A stretch of 64,000 nt of DNA from Candidatus Aenigmatarchaeota archaeon (GTDB lineage Archaea; Aenigmatarchaeota; Aenigmatarchaeia; CG10238-14; SCSR01): assembly GCA_039000165.1 (NCBI GenBank), contig JAWBTW010000002.1, positions 3,245 to 67,244 of the forward strand. The letters run 5' to 3'. The notes under the pieces were generated by a model that was not told the DNA's origin, searched no databases, and saw only the letters and a program-made list of their open reading frames with translations. Positions 32,827-58,611 of the stretch are shown here, in pieces. Every line of letters begins with the position of its first letter. Positions within the stretch are counted from its first letter, which is position 1. A program made the position numbers and the translations under genes.

Positions 32827-32910
32827 GGGCTCGTCCGGTAACCTGGATAGCCGACTGCGCTTCGGTTTTGAGGAAACGCAGTAGTGAGGGTTCAAATCCC
32901 TCCGAGCCCA
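32827..32910 (+). tRNA. tRNA-Arg (anticodon UCG) with a 10-nt intron at 37/38
   Basis: Acceptor GGGCUCG/CGAGCCC, T-arm GAGGG-UUCAAAU-CCCUC, anticodon stem CUGCG/CGCAG enclosing 17 nt. Exon CUUC pairs with intron GAGG, leaving an AAA bulge and a 6-nt loop (BHL). The intron is at 32866-32875. Confidence 0.75.
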
Positions 32911-33755
32911 CTTTTTATTCTTTCTTTCAACCTGCAAAAGCTACATATTCTCATGCTTGTTGGTTCTTTGCAGATTTCACACTCTTTTAAATCAAAAGAT
33001 AAGTTATTCTGTAAAATTCCTGCAACTGAAATTACGCTTTGTAAAAAGTTTTCTCTAAAGTTTGGTTGCCAGCTTGAAATTTCTTTAATAAGCTTGTACC
33101 ATTTTTCTCTTTTTCTGTCCATTTTTTGTTTAAGGATTACGTAAGGACAAACATCTTCTTCAACAAAAGGGATTCCTTCTTTCTTGCAAAAATCTTTTGT
33201 TTCTTCTTGGCTAACAAAGAACAAGGGTCTTATTCTAGTTAATTGCTTATTTCTGCCTTCAAGCTTAGGTAAAAACTTTGAAATCCAAAAGATGTTTTTG
33301 CTTAGCATGTTTTTAAAGAAGAAAACCAAAAAATCATCTGCATTATGTCCTGTACAAAGCTTTGTTGCTCCTTCCTCTCTTGGAATTTTGTTCATAAGAT
33401 ATCTTTTAACCATTCCGCAAAAGCTACAAATTGGTCTTTCTAAATTTGTTAATTTTTCGAAATCTATCCCAAAATTTTTAACATTATAAACCTTGAGCTT
33501 AACCTTGCATATGCTTGCTTGTTTTTTCACTATGTTAAGAACAGTTTTTGGTATAAAATCGCCAAGAATTAAATGAAAAGCGTTTATCTCACAATCTATT
33601 TTATTTTCTTTTACGTATTTTGAAAGCAAAAAGCAAACAGTAGCGCTGTCTTTTCCTCCGCTTAAAGCAACAAAAATTTTGTCTTTGTTCTCGATTAGCT
33701 TGTATTTTGAAATTGTTCTGAAAACCTTTTTCTCTATTTCAAGCATAACTCTCAT
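32892..33755 (-). CDS. PP-loop ATPase, tRNA thiolation family (TtcA/TtuA/NcsA-like)
   Basis: PP-loop SGGKDS, plus N- and C-terminal Cys pairs (CSFCG...; CEICKEP...CSFC). Its 3' end overlaps the tRNA-Arg 3' end on the opposite strand. Confidence 0.65.
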   Translation of the reverse strand: MRVMLEIEKKVFRTISKYKLIENKDKIFVALSGGKDSATVCFLLSKYVKENKIDCEINAFHLILGDFIPKTVLNIVKKQASICKVKLKVYNVKNFGIDFEKLTNLERPICSFCGMVKRYLMNKIPREEGATKLCTGHNADDFLVFFFKNMLSKNIFWISKFLPKLEGRNKQLTRIRPLFFVSQEETKDFCKKEGIPFVEEDVCPYVILKQKMDRKREKWYKLIKEISSWQPNFRENFLQSVISVAGILQNNLSFDLKECEICKEPTSMRICSFCRLKERIKSGLGGI

Positions 33756-33848
33756 AATAAATTACAGACAAAGAAATTAATGTGTTTAAGTTAGATTATA
33801 AAAGGGGAGCTTAAAAATTTTAAAAAATCTTTTTAAATTATAAGTAAG

Positions 33849-33923
33849 GCCCCTGTAGTCTAGCCCGGTCAAGGATACTGGCCTCTCGAGCCGGAGACCC
33901 GGGTTCAAATCCCGGCGGGGGCA
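33849..33923 (+). tRNA. tRNA-Glu (anticodon CUC)
   Basis: Acceptor GCCCCUG/CGGGGGC, anticodon stem-loop CUGGC-CUCUCGA-GCCGG, T-arm CCGGG-UUCAAAU-CCCGG. Confidence 0.85.
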
Positions 33924-33954
33924 TTTAAGATAACAAAAAAACTAATTCTAATTA

Positions 33955-34521
33955 ATGAAAAAGAAAGATAGAAGGAATGTTGCTGGTATCCTAATTTTTG
34001 TAGCAAGCGCGCAATTCATCATAGCTCTAAAGATTGCAGAAGCTTTATACCCTAACTATAACGTTTCTTCAAATTATATCAGTGATTTAGGAGTTGGGCC
34101 TTCTGCTTTCATTTTTAACTCTTCCGTTTTTCTGCTCGGCTTTTTAGCTTTAATTTCTGCTTATTTTCTTTTAATAGAAAAAGAACGAAAAGATTTTCTA
34201 TTTTGCTTAGTTTTGGCGGGAATCGGTGCTATGGGGGTTGGAATTTTTACTGAAGACTTTGGCTTATTACATACCATCTTTTCTTTCATCACATTTTTCT
34301 TTGGAGCTCTAGCTTCTATCTTTTCTTACAAAACCCAAAAATCAACCTTTTCTCTCCTATTTTTATTGCTTGGTTCTATTTCCCTTATTTCCTTGATTCT
34401 TTTTGGTTTAGGAGCTGACCTTGGTTTAGGAAAAGGTGGAATGGAAAGGATGATAGCCTATCCTATTTTAATCTGGGCTTTAGGTTTTGGTGCTTATACA
34501 GCTAAGGAAAAATACTTTTGA
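33955..34521 (+). CDS. polytopic membrane protein
   Basis: Five to six TM helices. No catalytic motif recognised. Confidence 0.4.
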   Translation: MKKKDRRNVAGILIFVASAQFIIALKIAEALYPNYNVSSNYISDLGVGPSAFIFNSSVFLLGFLALISAYFLLIEKERKDFLFCLVLAGIGAMGVGIFTEDFGLLHTIFSFITFFFGALASIFSYKTQKSTFSLLFLLLGSISLISLILFGLGADLGLGKGGMERMIAYPILIWALGFGAYTAKEKYF

Positions 34522-34595
34522 AGAAGTTTAAATTTTTTGACAAAATATTTTTAAAGGATAAAACGATTTATTAATTTGACTTGAGTTAGATTTAG

Positions 34596-34691
34596 GCAGG
34601 GGTCGCCTAGCCTGGTCGATGGCGCAGGGCTTAGAAAATTAGGAAACCCTGTGGCTTAGTGCCTTCCTGGGTTCAAATCCCAGCCCCTGCA
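34596..34691 (+). tRNA. tRNA-Leu (anticodon UAG) with a 10-nt intron at 37/38
   Basis: Acceptor GCAGGGG/CCCCUGC, long variable arm, T-arm CUGGG-UUCAAAU-CCCAG. Anticodon stem CAGGG/CCCUG encloses 17 nt. Exon CUUA pairs with intron UAGG, with an AAA bulge (BHL). The intron is at 34636-34645. Confidence 0.8.
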
Positions 34692-34725: not shown

Positions 34726-35709
34726 TTAGCTACTAAAACTTCTCCAGTATTTTATGGCTATGCATTCGTTTAGTTCAAAATTTTTAAAAACTTCAAAAGT
34801 TTCCAATAGTTTTCTTAGTGGTGTTTTTAAACAATTTCCAACAACCAACTTTGGAAAAAAACCGCAAGGACTAACATCCCCATTCGCATAAATTGAAAAA
34901 ACACCATCGCCCATAGGACATTTGAGACGATAAAACTGATCCATAACATTTCCGAACCTTAATTTTTTTAACTTACGATAAATCCATCTTTCTTCTTTAG
35001 GGCTAAGCATTATCTCCAAACTTTCTTTGTTTTCTGGAATAAACCTCATTATTTTCCAAGCGCTTGGTTTAATTTTTTTCTTTATAAACTTAGCAAGTTT
35101 AGGAATCTCTCTGTAATTTAACTTTGTAGGGACGGTTATTATTCTTACTCTTATTCCATTTTCTTTAAGTATTTTAATACTTTCCAAGACCCTATCCCAA
35201 ATATCAGCATTTCTCATCAAGTTATGTCCTTTTTTCATCCCATCTAAACTGACACTTACATAACTTACACAATTTTTTAGTTGGTTTGCCAACTCTTCGG
35301 TCATAGTAGTTCCGTTAGTTGTTATGGAACATGAAGCTCTTTTATAAGTGTATTTCAGAATTTTAATCAAATCTTTTCTTAAAGTTGGTTCACCACCACC
35401 AAAGCTTATGTGTAGTACACCAACCCCAAATACTTGATTAAGGATTTTTGAGAAAGAATTGAAAGGTAGTTCAAAAGGTCTATACCTGTTATGACAATGT
35501 CTGCATTTTAAGTTACACTTATAAGTTAAATCGATAAAAGCTTCGAAAAAATTATTTTCAAATTTAGGCTTAATTATCTTCACTCTGTTTGTACGAAGAA
35601 ATTTAATTAGTTGGTTTTTGTTCAAAAGAAAAAATTCAAAACAGGAGGGGTCATAGCCAATTCCCCCTTCCTTTAAAAGTTTTACCCATTTAGTTTCCCC
35701 ATTTTTCAA
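34726..35709 (-). CDS. radical SAM protein with C-terminal SPASM/twitch-like Cys cluster
   Basis: CNLKCRHC (Cx3Cx2C) with GGGEP. C-terminal CPMGDG...SPCGF...GNC auxiliary cluster pattern. About 55-aa N-terminal extension. Confidence 0.75.
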   Translation of the reverse strand: MKNGETKWVKLLKEGGIGYDPSCFEFFLLNKNQLIKFLRTNRVKIIKPKFENNFFEAFIDLTYKCNLKCRHCHNRYRPFELPFNSFSKILNQVFGVGVLHISFGGGEPTLRKDLIKILKYTYKRASCSITTNGTTMTEELANQLKNCVSYVSVSLDGMKKGHNLMRNADIWDRVLESIKILKENGIRVRIITVPTKLNYREIPKLAKFIKKKIKPSAWKIMRFIPENKESLEIMLSPKEERWIYRKLKKLRFGNVMDQFYRLKCPMGDGVFSIYANGDVSPCGFFPKLVVGNCLKTPLRKLLETFEVFKNFELNECIAIKYWRSFSS

Positions 35710-35768
35710 CAGCTTTCACCTTGCTCTTTTTCTCTTTGAAAACAAGCGGCGAACAACATCTCTTCATT

Positions 35769-36404
35769 TTACCTCACCTGTTTTTTAAATTTTTTAAGGT
35801 CATCGAAAGTATCTATCTCCAATATTGTATGGGGAGTATAAAAATAAAAAATGCTATAGTTATGCGCTAGCAACAGGATTGCTAAGTCTGAATATTCAAA
35901 ATTATCTTCTATTTTCTCTTCTATTTTTTTCAAAATACTTACGTTCCATATGGAAAGTGAAGTCGTAGGTTTAATATATTTCAGAGAACTTACTTTAACA
36001 GTTCTTCTCCTACCTTTTGCATGAAACAAGCAAGCTGGCTGGAGCTTTTTGTAAACTTTTATGCTTTCTCTTATTACCTCACTTGGTTGGATTATGTCAG
36101 AAGGTAGGACTAAAACATCTTTCCCAGACTTAATATTTATTATTTCAAGCATATTACGAACACAATAATCAGAACTTCCTACAAAATAGTTTATCTTTTT
36201 TTGTTGTAAGTAGGGAATGAAAGCTTCATGCCTATATCTGAGGCAAACTACTATGTTTGATTTTTTAATTCCACTTTCTAACAAACTATCAAGAGCATAA
36301 TCTATCAATTTTTTGTTGTTGATTTCAATTAAAGGCTTTGGTATTTCATAAGTAAGTGGTCTTAATCTTTCCCCTTTTCCACCTGCCATTAAAATTGCCA
36401 GCAT
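35769..36404 (-). CDS. nucleotidyltransferase (sugar-phosphate NTP-transferase / MobA-like fold)
   Basis: N-terminal LAILMAGGKGERLRPLT signature. Confidence 0.55.
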   Translation of the reverse strand: MLAILMAGGKGERLRPLTYEIPKPLIEINNKKLIDYALDSLLESGIKKSNIVVCLRYRHEAFIPYLQQKKINYFVGSSDYCVRNMLEIINIKSGKDVLVLPSDIIQPSEVIRESIKVYKKLQPACLFHAKGRRRTVKVSSLKYIKPTTSLSIWNVSILKKIEEKIEDNFEYSDLAILLLAHNYSIFYFYTPHTILEIDTFDDLKKFKKQVR

Positions 36405-36418
36405 AACTTATCTTAACC

Positions 36419-36889
36419 CTATTTATACACTACTATTTTTGTTGTCTCAAAAGCATCTTCCACAACTTTTTTGGGTTCTATTCCCCATTCTTTAATTAAG
36501 TCATGCGTTATATAGATGAAATATCCTTTATCCATTAGGTTTAGAGCTATAGTTACAAGATAGTAGGGATTAAAATTCACCAAAATTGCCTTGTTTAAAA
36601 GTTCTCCTGCGTATTCAGTAGGAAAGATTATTAGTTTCAACCTGTGCTTTGAGTATGGTGCAGGGATTTCAATTTCTTTTATGAAATCATCTATTGCCTT
36701 CTTCAATTTTTTACCTTCAAACACATCGATATAAATCTTAGCAACGTTTACTCTAAACCAATAGCCTTTCCATTCAGCATCAAAATGTGTCTTGCTTATA
36801 TCTTCGAACCTTATTCCTGGGAATTTTTTTCTTAAATTTTTTTTAACAAGATTTTTAATTAACATCTTCCCAATTAAAGTTAGATACAA
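36419..36889 (-). CDS. hypothetical protein
   Basis: ORF co-directional with the NTP-transferase. No motif. Confidence 0.3.
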   Translation of the reverse strand: MYLTLIGKMLIKNLVKKNLRKKFPGIRFEDISKTHFDAEWKGYWFRVNVAKIYIDVFEGKKLKKAIDDFIKEIEIPAPYSKHRLKLIIFPTEYAGELLNKAILVNFNPYYLVTIALNLMDKGYFIYITHDLIKEWGIEPKKVVEDAFETTKIVVYK

Positions 36890-40118: not shown

Positions 40119-40376
40119 GGCGAGCTAGCCAGGTAGCTTCGGCTTTGCATCAAAGCAAAGCTGAGGAAGTTCCCTCCATCCCTTAAGGTGCTGCGCAAGC
40201 AGCAGGCTGAGAAGCCTCTGCCAGAATCAGAAACGAGACCTTTTAGCTTCGCTAACCATGATGCGAAAGCTGAGTTGGGGCTAAAAGGATGAAACGGTCT
40301 GGCAGGCCTGGGATGCAAGTTTGAAACGCTTAGACAAATGCTACCAAAACATAAGAGGGGCTATGGCTAGCACGCC
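40119..40376 (+). ncRNA. rnpB: candidate RNase P RNA (minimal form)
   Basis: GC-rich noncoding island. The 5'/3' ends pair (GGCGAGCUAGCC / GGCUAGCACGCC, P1), followed by a P2-like strand and a P3 hairpin GCUUUGC-AUCAAA-GCAAAGC. Then comes a CR-I-like GAGGAAGUUCCCUCCAU, a GNRA-capped hairpin UGCUGC-GCAA-GCAGCA, and a CR-V-like CAGAAnC region near the 3' side. Confidence 0.5.
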
Positions 40377-54685: not shown

Positions 54686-55594
54686 TTATACCTCCAGGCT
54701 TGGCCTCCTAACTTTTATCAAACCAATAAACATGAATTGGAAGATTATCAAGAATCCCAAAATTAGGTATAGGAAAATGTCTAAGGGCAGGAATGAAAGA
54801 CCAAAGAAAGAAGAAAGAATTATTATGAAAGTTATTCCTAGAGTTGGAATAATAACTGCAGTCATCAAATACATCAAAGCCATAGGATTAAGCTGAGCTC
54901 CATACCTTCTAATCTCAATTCTCTGGTCTATTGCTAAGCCATTAACTATTTCTCTTAAAGTTGTTGCTATGTCTGAGCCAGCTCTCATTCCATTAACTAG
55001 TTGCCAAATAACCCTTCTAAAGTAGAGAGAAGGATTCCTAAAAGACATGTTTTCCAAAGCTTCTATCTCAGAAACTCCTGCGTTTATTTCCTTTACTGCT
55101 TCTTCAAATTCTTCTGAAACCAAACCATAATCTCCTGCAGCAACAGAAACCATAGCGTTAAAAAGAGTAACTCCTGACCTAACTTGAATCAGCAAATGCC
55201 TTAAAGCATAGAGCAAATCTCTTTCCAAAAGCCTTATTTTCTTAATCAAGAGCATTTTTGGGTAAAGAATTACGTAATAAAAAACAAAGAAAGTTATTCC
55301 TATATCTAGGGAAAGCATGGTAACAAGATAAGTTGGAGTAAAGGCAGCTAAAGGATTTAAAGGATTAGAAATTATCCCCAAGAAAATTGTTATGAAAATC
55401 ATTAGAGCAAAATAAAAAAATGCGGTAAAAATTGCTAAGGCAATGTATTCCCTAGGGTTCAAATCAACCTTTGCTTGTTTAAGCTCATAACTTAAAGAAG
55501 GAAAAAGCTTTGCCATCTCTTTGCTTACTCCAAAAAACTTCCTTGCATAATTCAAAGCTACTTCTGTTTTGAAAGGAAGTAGGGGAATCCTCAA
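54686..55594 (-). CDS. TadB/FlaJ-like pilus assembly membrane protein (T2SSF domain), N-terminal half-equivalent
   Basis: T2SSF-like domain plus TM helices. Start overlaps the ATPase stop by 4 nt. Confidence 0.65.
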   Translation of the reverse strand: MRIPLLPFKTEVALNYARKFFGVSKEMAKLFPSLSYELKQAKVDLNPREYIALAIFTAFFYFALMIFITIFLGIISNPLNPLAAFTPTYLVTMLSLDIGITFFVFYYVILYPKMLLIKKIRLLERDLLYALRHLLIQVRSGVTLFNAMVSVAAGDYGLVSEEFEEAVKEINAGVSEIEALENMSFRNPSLYFRRVIWQLVNGMRAGSDIATTLREIVNGLAIDQRIEIRRYGAQLNPMALMYLMTAVIIPTLGITFIIILSSFFGLSFLPLDIFLYLILGFLIIFQFMFIGLIKVRRPSLEV

Positions 55595-58500
55595 GTTTTC
55601 AACTCCTTCATCAAATCTCCTAACAATCTCTCTGGACTAATATTAGCTTTTATTGCACTTATTATTTTTTCTGGTTCAGAATAATACTCAGAAATAACAA
55701 AACCAACAGTATTGACAGTATTAATATTGTGCCTAACTAACCAATCAAGAACCATTTGCCTTTGAGCAAGCTCTTGAGCTATTTCTTGATCTGTCATTCC
55801 TGTGTAAAGCCTTAAGTCGTCCATTATTCTCATGCTTGTCTTGAAAGGAATAATTTCATCCTTATCTGCTCTCCACCTAAACAAAGTGTTAAGCTGAACT
55901 CCTCTTTCACTTGGAATAATTTCAGAAACTTGAAAAACTCTCCTTATTCCTTTTCTTCTGTCTCTGTGCATTGCTAGTATAATATGCAAAGCTTCTAAGA
56001 GCATTTCTGGCACGTTTATCGGTGGATTAACTAATCTTCTAACAGTTTGCTCTGCAGTGTCTGCATGCAAGGTTGAATAAACTGAATGACCAGTGTGCAT
56101 AGCTTCGAACAAAACTTCTGCTTCCCTTGCCCTTCTTATTTCTCCTACTATTATTCTGTCTGGCCTCATTCTCAAAGCGTTTACCATTAAATCTAACATA
56201 GAAACTTCTCCCTTTCCTTCAGGGTTCGGCTCTCTTGTTGTTAGAGGGACCCAGTGCAAGAAATCTGGCAACTGAATTTCTCTTGTGTTGTGCGCTATTA
56301 TATTGTTACAAACAAAACTTTCATTTCCTGGAACACTTATATCATAAACATAACCTTCAAACTCTCTTTCCTTTATTTCCTTTACTCTATCCCAAAAGAT
56401 GTCGTTACTAGCTAACTTTATTAAAATTTCATTTCCACCATCGTTTGCAATCTTACTCACAATTTCTTTCAACAATTCTCTCCCTATGTTAGATTTCATG
56501 TAATTTCTGTGCCAAGATTTCCATCCCTTATAACTTCTTTTTACTCCAACCTCTTCTTTTAACAATTTTTTAAGTCTGAGATAAAAGTGCTTTGGCAAAG
56601 GAACTACATCAGAAACATCATGGACTTTTTTATGCAACAAACTAAAAAGTTTTTCGTTGTTTTTCTCTTGCAAAAATCCAACTTCATAAAAGAAAGTTTT
56701 TAAAAATTTTGAACCAGAGATTGTTGCTTGATAAGTATTATCCTTAAACTTTTTTCCTATTCTTAAAGGAATTCCAAACCTTAGCAAAAGTGTTTGAATA
56801 TCTTTTAGAAGATTGAATGAAACAGAAGAAACTGCAACATCCTTTGACCTTACCCAACCATCTCCTGAAAAGTATCCTTTTAAAAATGCTGCTAGCTCTT
56901 CTTTTTCCAGACCAAAAACCCAACTTGGAACTCTTTTAGTATAGACATTTCCTTCTAACCCTAAAACTTCTTTGAAAAATGTTTTAAACAGTTTTGAATT
57001 AAGCATCAAGGAAATTTTATCACTATGCAATTTACAACCCATTCTAAACCTTTTTGCAATTTTCCTAATAATTTTTTTACTTTCCTCATCAGTAACAGAA
57101 AAAATAACAGAATTTCTATCGTAACAGCCATCTGCAAGCCAAAGCCCAGCTACTAATGCTAAATCTTTATTTACGCTAACTTTTAAAGGTAAGAAAGAAC
57201 CGCTTCTAGATTTTATTTTTCCTTTTCTTGGTTTAACGTTTAGCTTCTGCAGCACTTCAGCTTTCAAAACTCCTTTTTTTAAGTAATAGTAAGCTTGTTG
57301 CTTTGATAAAAGTTTTGATTCTACCAGCTTTTTAAAGTTTTTTCTAATAAATTCTTTGTCCACTTCAACAAAACATCCTTTGAATTTCTCAAGCTCTAAG
57401 GAAAGGTCAAAAACTTTCTTTTTTCCTTCATAAGGGAGTATTCTTGGTACTGCAATAAAACTTCCAACTTTTATTTCTTTTCCAGGAATTGGCACTATTT
57501 CACCGTTTTCGTTCAAACCAAAAAGAGAATGATCTTCTGTAACTGAAATCTTTCTTCCGCTAGCTAAAATTATATCTAAAACTTTCTTTTTTACTTTATG
57601 CCTAATAAAGTGGGAAGGTAGAGCAAGCTTAATTTTTCCATCTTTATCCATGGAAAAAATTTTTATGTTATCTTTGTTTTCAACTTTTTCTTCACCATCG
57701 GGGAGTAAAGAATCTATTAGTTCGCCAATAGCCTTTCTAAAGATTTCTCCTTTCCTTTCAAAAAGGATTTCACAATCGCCAGTGACGCTATCCTCTATCG
57801 AAACAATTCTATGGTTTGGTGGAATGAAAGTTGTTAAAACGTTCAGAATAGAAGTTTTTCCTGTTGCAGTCCCCCCAGAAACTATTATGTTCATTTCATA
57901 ATGAATGGCAAGCCAAAGCAAGGAAGCTACCTCTTTGTTTATTGTATTGTTTCTTATCAAGTCAGTTATCGTCCAAGGTTTTCTCGCAAATTTTCTTATC
58001 GTAATAGTATTTCCTTTTGTTGAAATCGGGAATAAAGTTGCGTTAACTCTGTCTCCTGTTGTTAGGTGCGCATCCATCAAAGGGTTTAAACTAGTTATTT
58101 GCCTTCCAACTTTCCTTCCTATCATGCTTGCATAGTTGTAAATTTCCAAATCACTTTTTATTACTATGTTAGTCTTAAGCCAACCATACTTTTTATGATA
58201 AACCCACAAAGGCTCTTGAGAATTGTTTATAACTATTTCTTCCAGATTTTCATCCTTAAGCAAAACTTCAACTTTTCCCAAGCCTAGCATCTCATGAACT
58301 AAAGTACCTGCCAAAATTCTTTTTTCTTCCTCAGAAATTCTTGGTAATTGTCTTTGAATTAGTTCTAAAGCCTTGTTGAAAAACCTTTGCTTCAAATCTT
58401 CCATCACTCTTGGGTCAAGAATTTCCTGAACTTTCACTCCAACTTCAGTTATTAACCTTTCCCTTATAGCAGATAAAACTGCTAGGGTTGCTTCCTCAAA

Positions 58501-58611
58501 CTTTGGTAAAGAAACTTCATAAATGGGAACAAATTCACCTTCTATTTTAACTATGTTAACCTCTGCAGGCACACCTTCTGCAACAAGCTTATAGCTATCC
58601 AATATTCTCAT
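55591..58611 (-). CDS. type IV pilus/archaellum-type secretion ATPase (TadA/FlaI/KlbA-like) containing an intein
   Basis: Walker A GGTATGKTS. Extein Asp box RIVSIED|TREIQLP is interrupted. Walker B DRIIVGEIR and a His box are present. The 505-aa extein is normal for the family. Confidence 0.85.
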   Translation of the reverse strand: MRILDSYKLVAEGVPAEVNIVKIEGEFVPIYEVSLPKFEEATLAVLSAIRERLITEVGVKVQEILDPRVMEDLKQRFFNKALELIQRQLPRISEEEKRILAGTLVHEMLGLGKVEVLLKDENLEEIVINNSQEPLWVYHKKYGWLKTNIVIKSDLEIYNYASMIGRKVGRQITSLNPLMDAHLTTGDRVNATLFPISTKGNTITIRKFARKPWTITDLIRNNTINKEVASLLWLAIHYEMNIIVSGGTATGKTSILNVLTTFIPPNHRIVSIEDSVTGDCEILFERKGEIFRKAIGELIDSLLPDGEEKVENKDNIKIFSMDKDGKIKLALPSHFIRHKVKKKVLDIILASGRKISVTEDHSLFGLNENGEIVPIPGKEIKVGSFIAVPRILPYEGKKKVFDLSLELEKFKGCFVEVDKEFIRKNFKKLVESKLLSKQQAYYYLKKGVLKAEVLQKLNVKPRKGKIKSRSGSFLPLKVSVNKDLALVAGLWLADGCYDRNSVIFSVTDEESKKIIRKIAKRFRMGCKLHSDKISLMLNSKLFKTFFKEVLGLEGNVYTKRVPSWVFGLEKEELAAFLKGYFSGDGWVRSKDVAVSSVSFNLLKDIQTLLLRFGIPLRIGKKFKDNTYQATISGSKFLKTFFYEVGFLQEKNNEKLFSLLHKKVHDVSDVVPLPKHFYLRLKKLLKEEVGVKRSYKGWKSWHRNYMKSNIGRELLKEIVSKIANDGGNEILIKLASNDIFWDRVKEIKEREFEGYVYDISVPGNESFVCNNIIAHNTREIQLPDFLHWVPLTTREPNPEGKGEVSMLDLMVNALRMRPDRIIVGEIRRAREAEVLFEAMHTGHSVYSTLHADTAEQTVRRLVNPPINVPEMLLEALHIILAMHRDRRKGIRRVFQVSEIIPSERGVQLNTLFRWRADKDEIIPFKTSMRIMDDLRLYTGMTDQEIAQELAQRQMVLDWLVRHNINTVNTVGFVISEYYSEPEKIISAIKANISPERLLGDLMKELKT
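56287..57789 (-). mobile_element. intein (501 aa) with LAGLIDADG homing-endonuclease domain in the secretion ATPase
   Basis: Block A SVTGDCEIL (Ser1), block B TEDH, two LAGLIDADG motifs (LVAGLWLADGCY, LAAFLKGYFSGDGWV), C-terminal ...IIAHN followed by +1 Thr. Inserted at the conserved IED|T site. Confidence 0.8.

Follow-up and report, generated by a model that had tools for sequence, protein, structure and literature searches.

Our analyses have identified two tRNA genes, tRNA-Arg(UCG) and tRNA-Leu(UAG), in a 64,000 nucleotide (nt) stretch of DNA from a Candidatus Aenigmatarchaeota archaeon (assembly GCA_039000165.1, contig JAWBTW010000002.1, positions 3,245 to 67,244; hereafter the window), which are very probably functional genes that each contain a protein-spliced archaeal intron of 10 nt at position 37/38 of the tRNA. 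Both of the inserts are relaxed introns of the hBH or bulge-helix-loop (BHL) class at the canonical 37/38 position, and they are part of a population of 10-15 nt mini-introns that are quickly gained, lost or relocated in Aenigmatarchaeota-like genomes. The genes, the fold of their anticodon arms, the state of the same locus in related genomes, and the covariation of the introns with the exons that surround them are described below.

Identification of the two tRNA genes

The sequences at 32827-32910 and 34596-34691, both on the forward strand, are genuine tRNA genes. The Rfam tRNA model (RF00005; gathering score 29) matches them with 46.6 and 44.3 bits, respectively, at exactly the coordinates given in the initial annotation of this DNA, and in the Rfam alignments of both genes the model skips a stretch of 12-13 nt within the anticodon loop. 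The tRNA-Leu gene is listed only under the "evalue" threshold and is not present in the gathering-mode Rfam scan of the whole window. The use of ARAGORN as a check, which had been proposed in the initial annotation, gave a divided result: at its default settings the program detected neither of the genes in the window, whereas both were detected, each with a 10 nt intron, when introns were allowed (option -i). After removal of the 10 nt in silico, ARAGORN recognizes the two sequences as Arg(tcg) and Leu(tag) with normal cloverleaves, and all four arms are present in both genes in perfect cloverleaves (Rfam, ARAGORN). The tRNA-Arg gene is 84 nt in length (74 nt when mature, with no encoded CCA) and has a short variable region of 4-5 nt, while the tRNA-Leu gene is 96 nt in length (86 nt when mature) and has a long variable arm and the discriminator base A; these variable arms are as the initial annotation described them.

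Structure of the introns and predicted placement of the splice sites

The anticodon stems of the two genes, each of 5 base pairs (bp) (CUGCG/CGCAG in tRNA-Arg and CAGGG/CCCUG in tRNA-Leu), each enclose 17 nt (CUUCGGUUUUGAGGAAA and CUUAGAAAAUUAGGAAA, respectively). RNAfold, applied to each gene in full and to its anticodon arm alone, yields, in the minimum free energy (MFE) or centroid structure, the 5 bp stem, a 4 bp central helix, an AAA bulge and a 6 nt loop. The central helix (H) is formed between nt 32-35 of the 5' exon and nt 5-8 of the intron, viz. between CUUC (32860-32863) and GAGG (32870-32873) in tRNA-Arg, where the pairing is found in both MFE and centroid structures, and between CUUA (34630-34633) and UAGG (34640-34643) in tRNA-Leu, with a U33-G wobble in each. 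The AAA bulge that follows (32874-32876 in tRNA-Arg and 34644-34646 in tRNA-Leu) holds the predicted 3' splice site, which in tRNA-Arg would be between 32875 and 32876. The 17 nt enclosure, the pairing with GAGG or UAGG and the AAA bulge had all been recognized in the initial annotation, and they agree with our results. The 6 nt loop that it assigned to the 5' splice site is found in tRNA-Leu and in the centroid structure of tRNA-Arg, but not in the MFE structure of tRNA-Arg, in which a fifth pair (G36-U) leaves a loop of 4 nt. The arrangement of a 5 bp stem, a 4 bp helix, a 3 nt bulge and a loop is present in the MFE and centroid structures of both window genes, and also in those of a tRNA-Leu gene and a tRNA-Arg gene from two metagenome loci described below (L119 and L090, respectively).

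According to the bulge-helix-bulge rule, each end of the 4 bp helix is followed, two nucleotides further in the 3' direction, by a cut (PMC4090602). Since cleavage would, by this rule, follow nt 37 and precede A38, we assign the introns to 32866-32875 (UUUUGAGGAA) in tRNA-Arg and to 34636-34645 (AAAUUAGGAA) in tRNA-Leu. The computed exon coordinates would then be 32827-32865 (39 nt, positions 1-37) and 32876-32910 (35 nt, positions 38-73) for tRNA-Arg, and 34596-34635 (40 nt) and 34646-34691 (46 nt) for tRNA-Leu. Excision of the 10 nt leaves anticodon loops of 7 nt each, CUUCGGA for Arg(UCG) and CUUAGAA for Leu(UAG), which are the loops that had been predicted at the outset.

In the relaxed hBH or BHL class, as defined in earlier work (PMC5829648; PMC3239211), a helix h, one bulge and a helix H are followed by a loop that replaces the second bulge, and this is the structure seen in both genes. 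Neither of them shows the strict hBHBh' motif: the 5' splice site lies in a hairpin loop of 6 nt (possibly 4 nt in tRNA-Arg) with no second bulge, and the helix h' is lacking because 10 nt are too short to form it. By an arithmetic estimate at 33% G+C, which is the G+C content of the window, a random 10-mer would have all four in-register pairs together with a terminal AA with a probability of about 1e-3 per gene. A chance origin of this architecture is excluded, because of this low probability for each gene and because the same architecture recurs and covaries in relatives.

The Arg-Glu-Leu cluster in related genomes

A one-genome-per-species scan with the neighbouring PP-loop ATPase gene led to two Candidatus Aenigmatarchaeota metagenome-assembled genomes (MAGs), L003 and L004, in which the PP-loop ATPase shows 91% protein identity and the DNA is colinear with the window at ~90% identity. 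The syntenic tRNA-Leu gene of L003 is intron-less: it is recognized as Leu(tag) by ARAGORN at default settings, has the loop CTTAGAA, and scores 62.3 bits with Rfam. The alignment of the window gene with it contains a clean gap of 10 nt at the intron, and the same 10 nt indel is seen in a three-way alignment. The tRNA-Arg gene, including its intron, is identical in L001 and L003, and the flanking DNA of L003 is 90.7% identical to the window.

The syntenic tRNA-Leu gene of L004 (2004-2110, reverse strand) has no insert at 37/38 and instead contains 19 nt (AAGUUUAAGAACUUGCCAU) at 30/31, within the 5' strand of the anticodon stem. Analysis by hand reveals in it a perfect 3-4-3 bulge-helix-bulge, with a helix H of GGCA/UGCC, the bulges GGA and AUG, and an h' of 4 bp; the local MFE fold of this arm does not contain the motif, the basis for which is the rule-based pairing together with the agreement of the predicted cut sites with the alignment gap at 30/31. 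The bulge-helix-bulge rule hence predicts the intron boundaries correctly in an independent case, and the 30/31 intron of L004 shows that the lineage of the window apparently processes non-canonical introns. This Leu(UAG) gene is missed by the Rfam tRNA model and mislabelled as Pro(agg) by ARAGORN. At ~3380-3540 of L004 (reverse-complement orientation), the region syntenic to 32827-32910, there is no tRNA-Arg, and the conserved downstream flank (CTTTTTATTCTTTC...) directly adjoins AT-rich sequence that is unrelated.

A single metagenome scan with an exact 25-mer covering the T-arm and acceptor of the tRNA-Leu gene yielded 66 further loci. This 25-mer replaced a degenerate 3'-end pattern for the Arg and Leu genes on viral contigs, which had matched unrelated bacterial tRNAs and tmRNAs. 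Several of the metagenome loci are syntenic with the window via FtsZ, tRNA-Glu or eIF2-alpha. In one of them, L119, the Leu(UAG) gene has a 10 nt intron (AGUUUAGGAA) that differs from the Leu intron of the window at two loop positions only. In two others, L090 and L123 (75% nucleotide identity in FtsZ), Arg(UCG) has an intron of 12 nt (UUUUUAGGAGAA) with the same architecture and another pairing strand, GGAG.

The middle gene of the conserved Arg-Glu-Leu cluster, tRNA-Glu(CUC) (33849-33923, forward strand; ARAGORN, Rfam), is intron-less in the window, and the intron content of all three genes varies across the loci compared. An Arg(UCG) intron of 10 nt is shared by the window and L003 and one of 12 nt by L090 and L123; the gene is missing at this site in L004, and the contigs of L119, L079 and L137 end before the site is reached. 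Glu(CUC) has no intron in L003, L004, L090, L119 and L079, and has introns of 13-15 nt in some relatives, with 15 nt in L123 and 13 nt in L137. The Leu(UAG) gene contains 10 nt in the window and in L119, 19 nt at 30/31 in L004, and no intron in L003, L090, L123, L079 and L137. No intron shorter than 10 nt was found among the 96 tRNAs predicted by ARAGORN in L003, L004 and the 66 metagenome loci. The three states of Leu(UAG) at ~90% identity, together with the variable introns of the Arg, Glu and Leu genes, constitute a compact natural series for the study of tRNA intron gain and loss in the DPANN archaea.

The direction of the change at the Leu locus can be read in more than one way. A gain in the lineage of the window is favoured by the distribution of the intron, because no intron is present in those syntenic relatives that are more distant (L090, L123, L079, and L137). 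An older origin with subsequent loss, or a transfer, is argued for by the near-identical intron of L119, because it sits in a gene with the 5'-half sequence of L003. The window gene differs from that of L003 at 5 positions in 34596-34621, all of them in the D-arm, and the 3' halves are identical; the 5' half of the window Leu(UAG) is the same as that of Leu(CAG) in L128, and the 5' half of the L003 gene is the same as that of L119. The bodies of the Leu isoacceptors seem, from these comparisons, to be homogenised within genomes, and the presence of an intron seems to be independent of body type.

Several other features of the locus were observed. The PP-loop ATPase open reading frame (ORF) (ATP_bind_3, 32892-33755, reverse strand) overlaps with its 3' end the last 19 nt of tRNA-Arg (32892-32910) on the opposite strand. 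Directly 3' of tRNA-Leu, ~2.2 kb of the window (34726-36889), encoding a radical-SAM/SPASM protein, a nucleotidyltransferase and a 156 amino acid (aa) ORF, are absent from L003 and L004; neither an att-like repeat derived from the 3' end of tRNA-Leu nor any other repeat at the borders of this insertion was found in a search for them. Isolated copies of the tRNA-Leu 3' end, of 31 nt and 25 nt, are present at distances of 1.3 kb and 0.5 kb downstream from the complete genes in L134 (5355-5385) and L102 (5666-5690), respectively, and these look like att duplications from integrating elements.

Covariation of the introns with the anticodon

The conservation of the exon-intron helix was evaluated in a set comprising all of the 10-15 nt anticodon-loop inserts reported by ARAGORN in these loci for which the flanking anticodon stem is paired at 5/5 positions, to which the 13 nt introns at 37/38 of the two-intron Leu genes of L072 and L114 were added by hand. 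The set consists of 14 distinct introns from Leu, Arg, Ala, and Glu genes and from one tRNA of ambiguous identity (L084). Under the canonical rule, 85.7% of the cells of the helix between nt 32-35 and the intron are paired across the 14 introns, and three of the four helix pairs show compensatory two-sided changes (e.g., G34-C in Leu(GAG) and C34-G in Glu(CUC)). For the structure as a whole the paired fraction is 93.7%, as against 62.7% in shuffled sets, none of the 500 shuffles reaching 93.7%; when the register is slid by 1-3 columns the paired fraction is 37-59%, which makes the canonical register the best of the seven tested. The final two nucleotides of the intron are AA in 12 of the 14. 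These patterns indicate that the exon-intron helix covaries with the anticodon and appears to be kept by compensatory change across the homologues. They also support, together with the intron-less orthologue in L003 and the homologous 12 nt Arg intron of distant relatives, the assignment of the introns to 37/38 in the initial annotation.

Other Leu genes in these loci contain introns of different kinds. Leu(UAA) genes of 126-130 nt are widespread (L072, L084, L092, L097, L101, L121, L129, L130, L132, L135, L136, and others) and contain two introns, viz. an insert of ~28 nt at ~31/32 and a 13 nt BHL intron at 37/38 (AAUGACUUGGGAA); the labels given to them by ARAGORN (Asp, Asn, Pro, and His) are wrong. 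Longer introns are found in Leu(CAA/UAA) genes, of 26 nt in L082, L105, and L107 and of 33-35 nt in L091, L109, L126, L127, and L134. These end in GAAGAA|A, as do those of 12-13 nt, and their best pairing to nt 32-35 sits 3 nt upstream of where the 37/38 rule would place it. In the 26 nt introns there is a CUGA-N3-GAUGA that is similar to a box D'/C' K-loop.

Candidate splicing enzymes

No gene for the splicing endonuclease EndA was detected in the window by Pfam scans of its 58 ORFs, in the precomputed annotation of L001, or by tblastn, for which the query was a Methanocaldococcus jannaschii EndA sequence that is 92% identical to the EndA of M. fervens. An EndA homologue of 183 aa was met by chance in the metagenome locus L080 (8059-8610, forward strand) and was the start of two protein searches. 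The best 120 of 1134 and the best 120 of 1310 matches are 165-220 aa in length, and all of them contain both PF02778 and PF01974. Among the matches listed, at least 17 clusters are named Candidatus Aenigm(at)archaeota, all with a single-unit EndA of 172-208 aa, and some of these proteins are from the same MAG accession series. The five EndA proteins that were looked up all belong to other Aenigmatarchaeota assemblies and not to the assemblies of the window itself (GCA_039000015.1, GCA_044343625.1 and GCA_038997495.1). A conserved neighbourhood, consisting of EndA, ribosomal protein S17e, a 378 aa ORF and AliA_AliB, was also observed.

The closest full-length solved structure to the retrieved proteins is the alpha4 enzyme of M. 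jannaschii (1A79). In comparison with it they have a conserved, Lys-rich insertion of 6 residues (KGPKEA-like) directly before the catalytic His. The acidic loop at the C terminus is retained, as are the catalytic Tyr and His. Where M. jannaschii has its catalytic Lys156, the aligned residue is Ala or Thr, in the motifs IRAK and IRTE (e.g., P0100, P0113, P0018, P0078, and L080). Kaneta et al. (2018; PMC5829648) situate near the catalytic His the "specific loops" that give crenarchaeal and ARMAN enzymes their broad specificity, and they record EndAs of the alpha4 type with extra loops for DPANN lineages in which disrupted tRNA genes are abundant.

The initial annotation had deduced from the BHL introns a relaxed-specificity endonuclease of heterotetrameric or epsilon2 type. 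A broad-specificity enzyme in the lineage of the window is plausible, because introns of the BHL class and one at 30/31 both occur in it; the named architectures, however, over-reach, because alpha4-type EndAs with an extra loop are on record for DPANN archaea (PMC5829648) and those retrieved from Aenigm(at)archaeota are single-unit proteins. An epsilon2 EndA in the organism of the window appears unlikely, because the retrieved Aenigmatarchaeota proteins are single-unit and 172-208 aa in length, while a separate beta subunit is conceivable.

An Archease gene (PF01951) that adjoins a polyprenyl synthase gene is present at 743-1159 of L142, ~2 kb past the window's 3' end; the contig is 99.95% identical to the end of the window. 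Archease is a cofactor of the RtcB tRNA ligase.

Proposed processing and alternative explanations

In the pathway that we propose, the 5 bp anticodon stem of the precursor would stack on the 4 bp helix of nt 32-35 with intron nt 5-8, and intron nt 9-10 together with A38 would form the 3 nt bulge in which the 3' splice site is exposed. The cut at the 5' end of the intron, after nt 37, would fall two nucleotides beyond the other end of the helix, in the 6 nt hairpin loop. EndA would cleave at both sites, and an RtcB-type ligase with Archease would join the exons (39 + 35 nt in tRNA-Arg and 40 + 46 nt in tRNA-Leu), giving the loops CUUCGGA and CUUAGAA. The RNA that the splicing endonuclease requires would accordingly be small: 4 bp, a 3 nt bulge and a small loop.

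A number of points weigh against this account. Neither an EndA nor an RtcB gene lies within the window, and the EndA of the organism's own genome was not retrieved in two protein searches and five contig look-ups. The rows of the covariation set lack phylogenetic independence, the fold z-scores of the 27 nt arms are just -1.5 and -2.1, as is expected for short hairpins, and the G36-U pair of tRNA-Arg may reduce the loop around the 5' site to 4 nt. In tRNA-Leu, the cut positions lie in a run of A and are unreadable from the sequence, as cuts shifted by one position in either direction yield an identical product.

This last point leaves room for cleavage away from 37/38, either shifted by one position or guided by the body of the mature tRNA as in eukaryotes. 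The registers 36/37, 37/38 and 38/39 all yield the same tRNA-Leu; the 5' site, being in a loop, is less defined than it would be in a bulge; and the 12-13 nt Leu introns ending in GAAGAA have just three of the four helix pairs in the canonical register. We nevertheless consider such cleavage very improbable, as only the 37/38 register gives tRNA-Arg the loop CUUCGGA with G37 and the anticodon UCG, the canonical register is superior across the whole mini-intron set, and the same rule yields the 30/31 boundaries of L004 exactly. Retention of the inserts, in decaying pseudogenes or in tRNAs that work with an anticodon loop of 17 nt, could account for a window that has no EndA gene. It is disfavoured by the perfect cloverleaves with all four arms, by a tRNA-Arg that is 100% conserved, including the insert, between flanks that have diverged by ~9%, by the constraint on the inserts across many genes (viz. 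their pairing with nt 32-35 and their AA end), and by the fact that EndA is encoded in Aenigmatarchaeota genomes. Moreover, we know of no functional tRNA with a 17 nt anticodon loop, and there is very little to recommend this explanation.

The placement of the introns by ARAGORN, in or just after the anticodon, would turn the genes into tRNAs for selenocysteine (SeC), tRNA-SeC(UCA), and serine, tRNA-Ser(UGA); with introns allowed the program does label them SeC(tca) and Ser(tga), each with i(38,10). This placement is arbitrary, since it takes no account of the bulge-helix-bulge rule, and the resulting cut sites fall within the 4 bp helix, outside any bulge. For the tRNA-Leu gene it is refuted by the intron-less L003 orthologue, and the discriminator base of this gene is A, as opposed to G in the tRNA-Ser of the window. 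A tRNA-SeC was also considered for the first gene and rejected: with a 7 bp acceptor stem, a 5 bp T stem and a variable region of 4-5 nt, this gene has ordinary arms and not the long-armed SeC fold, and the UCA anticodon is solely a product of the ARAGORN placement. We regard these identities as the least credible of the alternatives, with next to no chance of being correct. Spliced 10 nt introns at 37/38 in functional tRNA-Arg(UCG) and tRNA-Leu(UAG) genes are hence our preferred explanation for both loci.

A broader proposal, which we put forward tentatively and consider rather doubtful, is that the Aenigmatarchaeota harbour minimal hBH introns (10-15 nt) with a fast turnover, such that at one tRNA locus an intron may be present, absent or replaced by a non-canonical intron in genomes that are ~10% diverged, and that these are processed by a single-subunit, alpha4-like EndA which owes its broad specificity to the Lys-rich 6-residue insertion and in which the canonical catalytic Lys is replaced. 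If this is true, the substrate range of EndA is not set by subunit architecture, and the introns of the window are the smallest natural EndA substrates known.

Source of the window and other features

The window is 99.95-100% identical to the MAG contigs JAWBVI010000002.1, JAWBXU010000002.1, and JAWAZG010000014.1 and also to Logan contigs of the hot-spring samples SRR21619498 and SRR21619490, the nearest named genomes being those of Aenigmatarchaeota. The source organism can be identified by direct sequence match as a hot-spring archaeon of the Aenigmatarchaeota (DPANN), and disrupted tRNA genes are already on record for the DPANN group (PMC5829648). The window also contains an archaeal RNase P RNA at 40120-40375 and, at 55591-58611 (reverse strand), a type II/IV secretion (FlaI/T2SSE-like) ATPase that is split by an intein with a LAGLIDADG homing-endonuclease domain.

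Comparison with known systems

The results have consequences for the annotation of such genomes. Default, bacterial-mode tRNA finders miss both genes and ARAGORN in its intron-aware mode mislabels them as SeC and Ser; the genomes would seem to be without tRNAs for Arg(UCG) and Leu(UAG), or a suppressor or SeC tRNA would be ascribed to them.

Archaeal tRNA introns range from 11 to 129 nt in length, with medians of 12-25 nt (Yoshihisa, 2014; PMC4090602). The statement of the initial annotation that 10 nt is at or near the archaeal minimum agrees with this range, the published lower limit of which is reduced by one nucleotide by the introns of the window. The geometric minimum for an hBH intron would be ~7 nt, and thus clearly less than 10 nt, as 4 nt are needed for the pairing strand, 2 nt for the bulge and at least 1 nt for the loop. 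Introns of comparable minimal length, viz. 11 bp introns in the anticodon loop, are found in nuclear tRNAs of Cyanidioschyzon merolae (PMC3728597), which differ in belonging to an unrelated lineage with a eukaryotic host and enzyme.

With regard to turnover, the variation of intron content at one tRNA locus among close genomes of a natural Caldiarchaeum population (Sugahara et al., 2012; PMC3293823), and the differences between close genomes of Thermoproteales in the introns of the same tRNA gene, are similar to the situation at the Leu(UAG) locus of the window, where the states are a 10 nt intron at 37/38, no intron, or 19 nt at 30/31, and where rearranged DNA adjoins the tRNA gene. The lineages differ in that the former belong to the TACK archaea and that of the window to the DPANN archaea, and no recombinase, tRNA fragment or att repeat was found beside the window gene.

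In structure, there is a close likeness to the pre-tRNA-Cys intron of ARMAN-2, which is also from a DPANN host, is short, and combines a single 3 nt bulge with a central helix and with a loop where the second bulge would be; this 13 nt intron has been cleaved experimentally in vitro by the organism's own EndA (PMC3239211). It sits at 59/60, a non-canonical site, in contrast to the 10 nt introns of the window at the canonical 37/38, and its EndA is a three-unit epsilon2 enzyme, whereas the Aenigmatarchaeota EndAs retrieved here are single-unit. With the canonical hBHBh' introns at 37/38 (Marck and Grosjean, 2003, summarised in PMC4090602), the window introns share their position, the pairing of the first two anticodon bases with the intron in a 4 bp helix, and a 3' splice site in a 3 nt bulge; they differ in having neither a second bulge nor h' and in a length that is below 11-129 nt. 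The introns of the window are hence of the ordinary archaeal tRNA-intron kind, at the very short end of its range, and they belong to an hBH/BHL class that has already been described.

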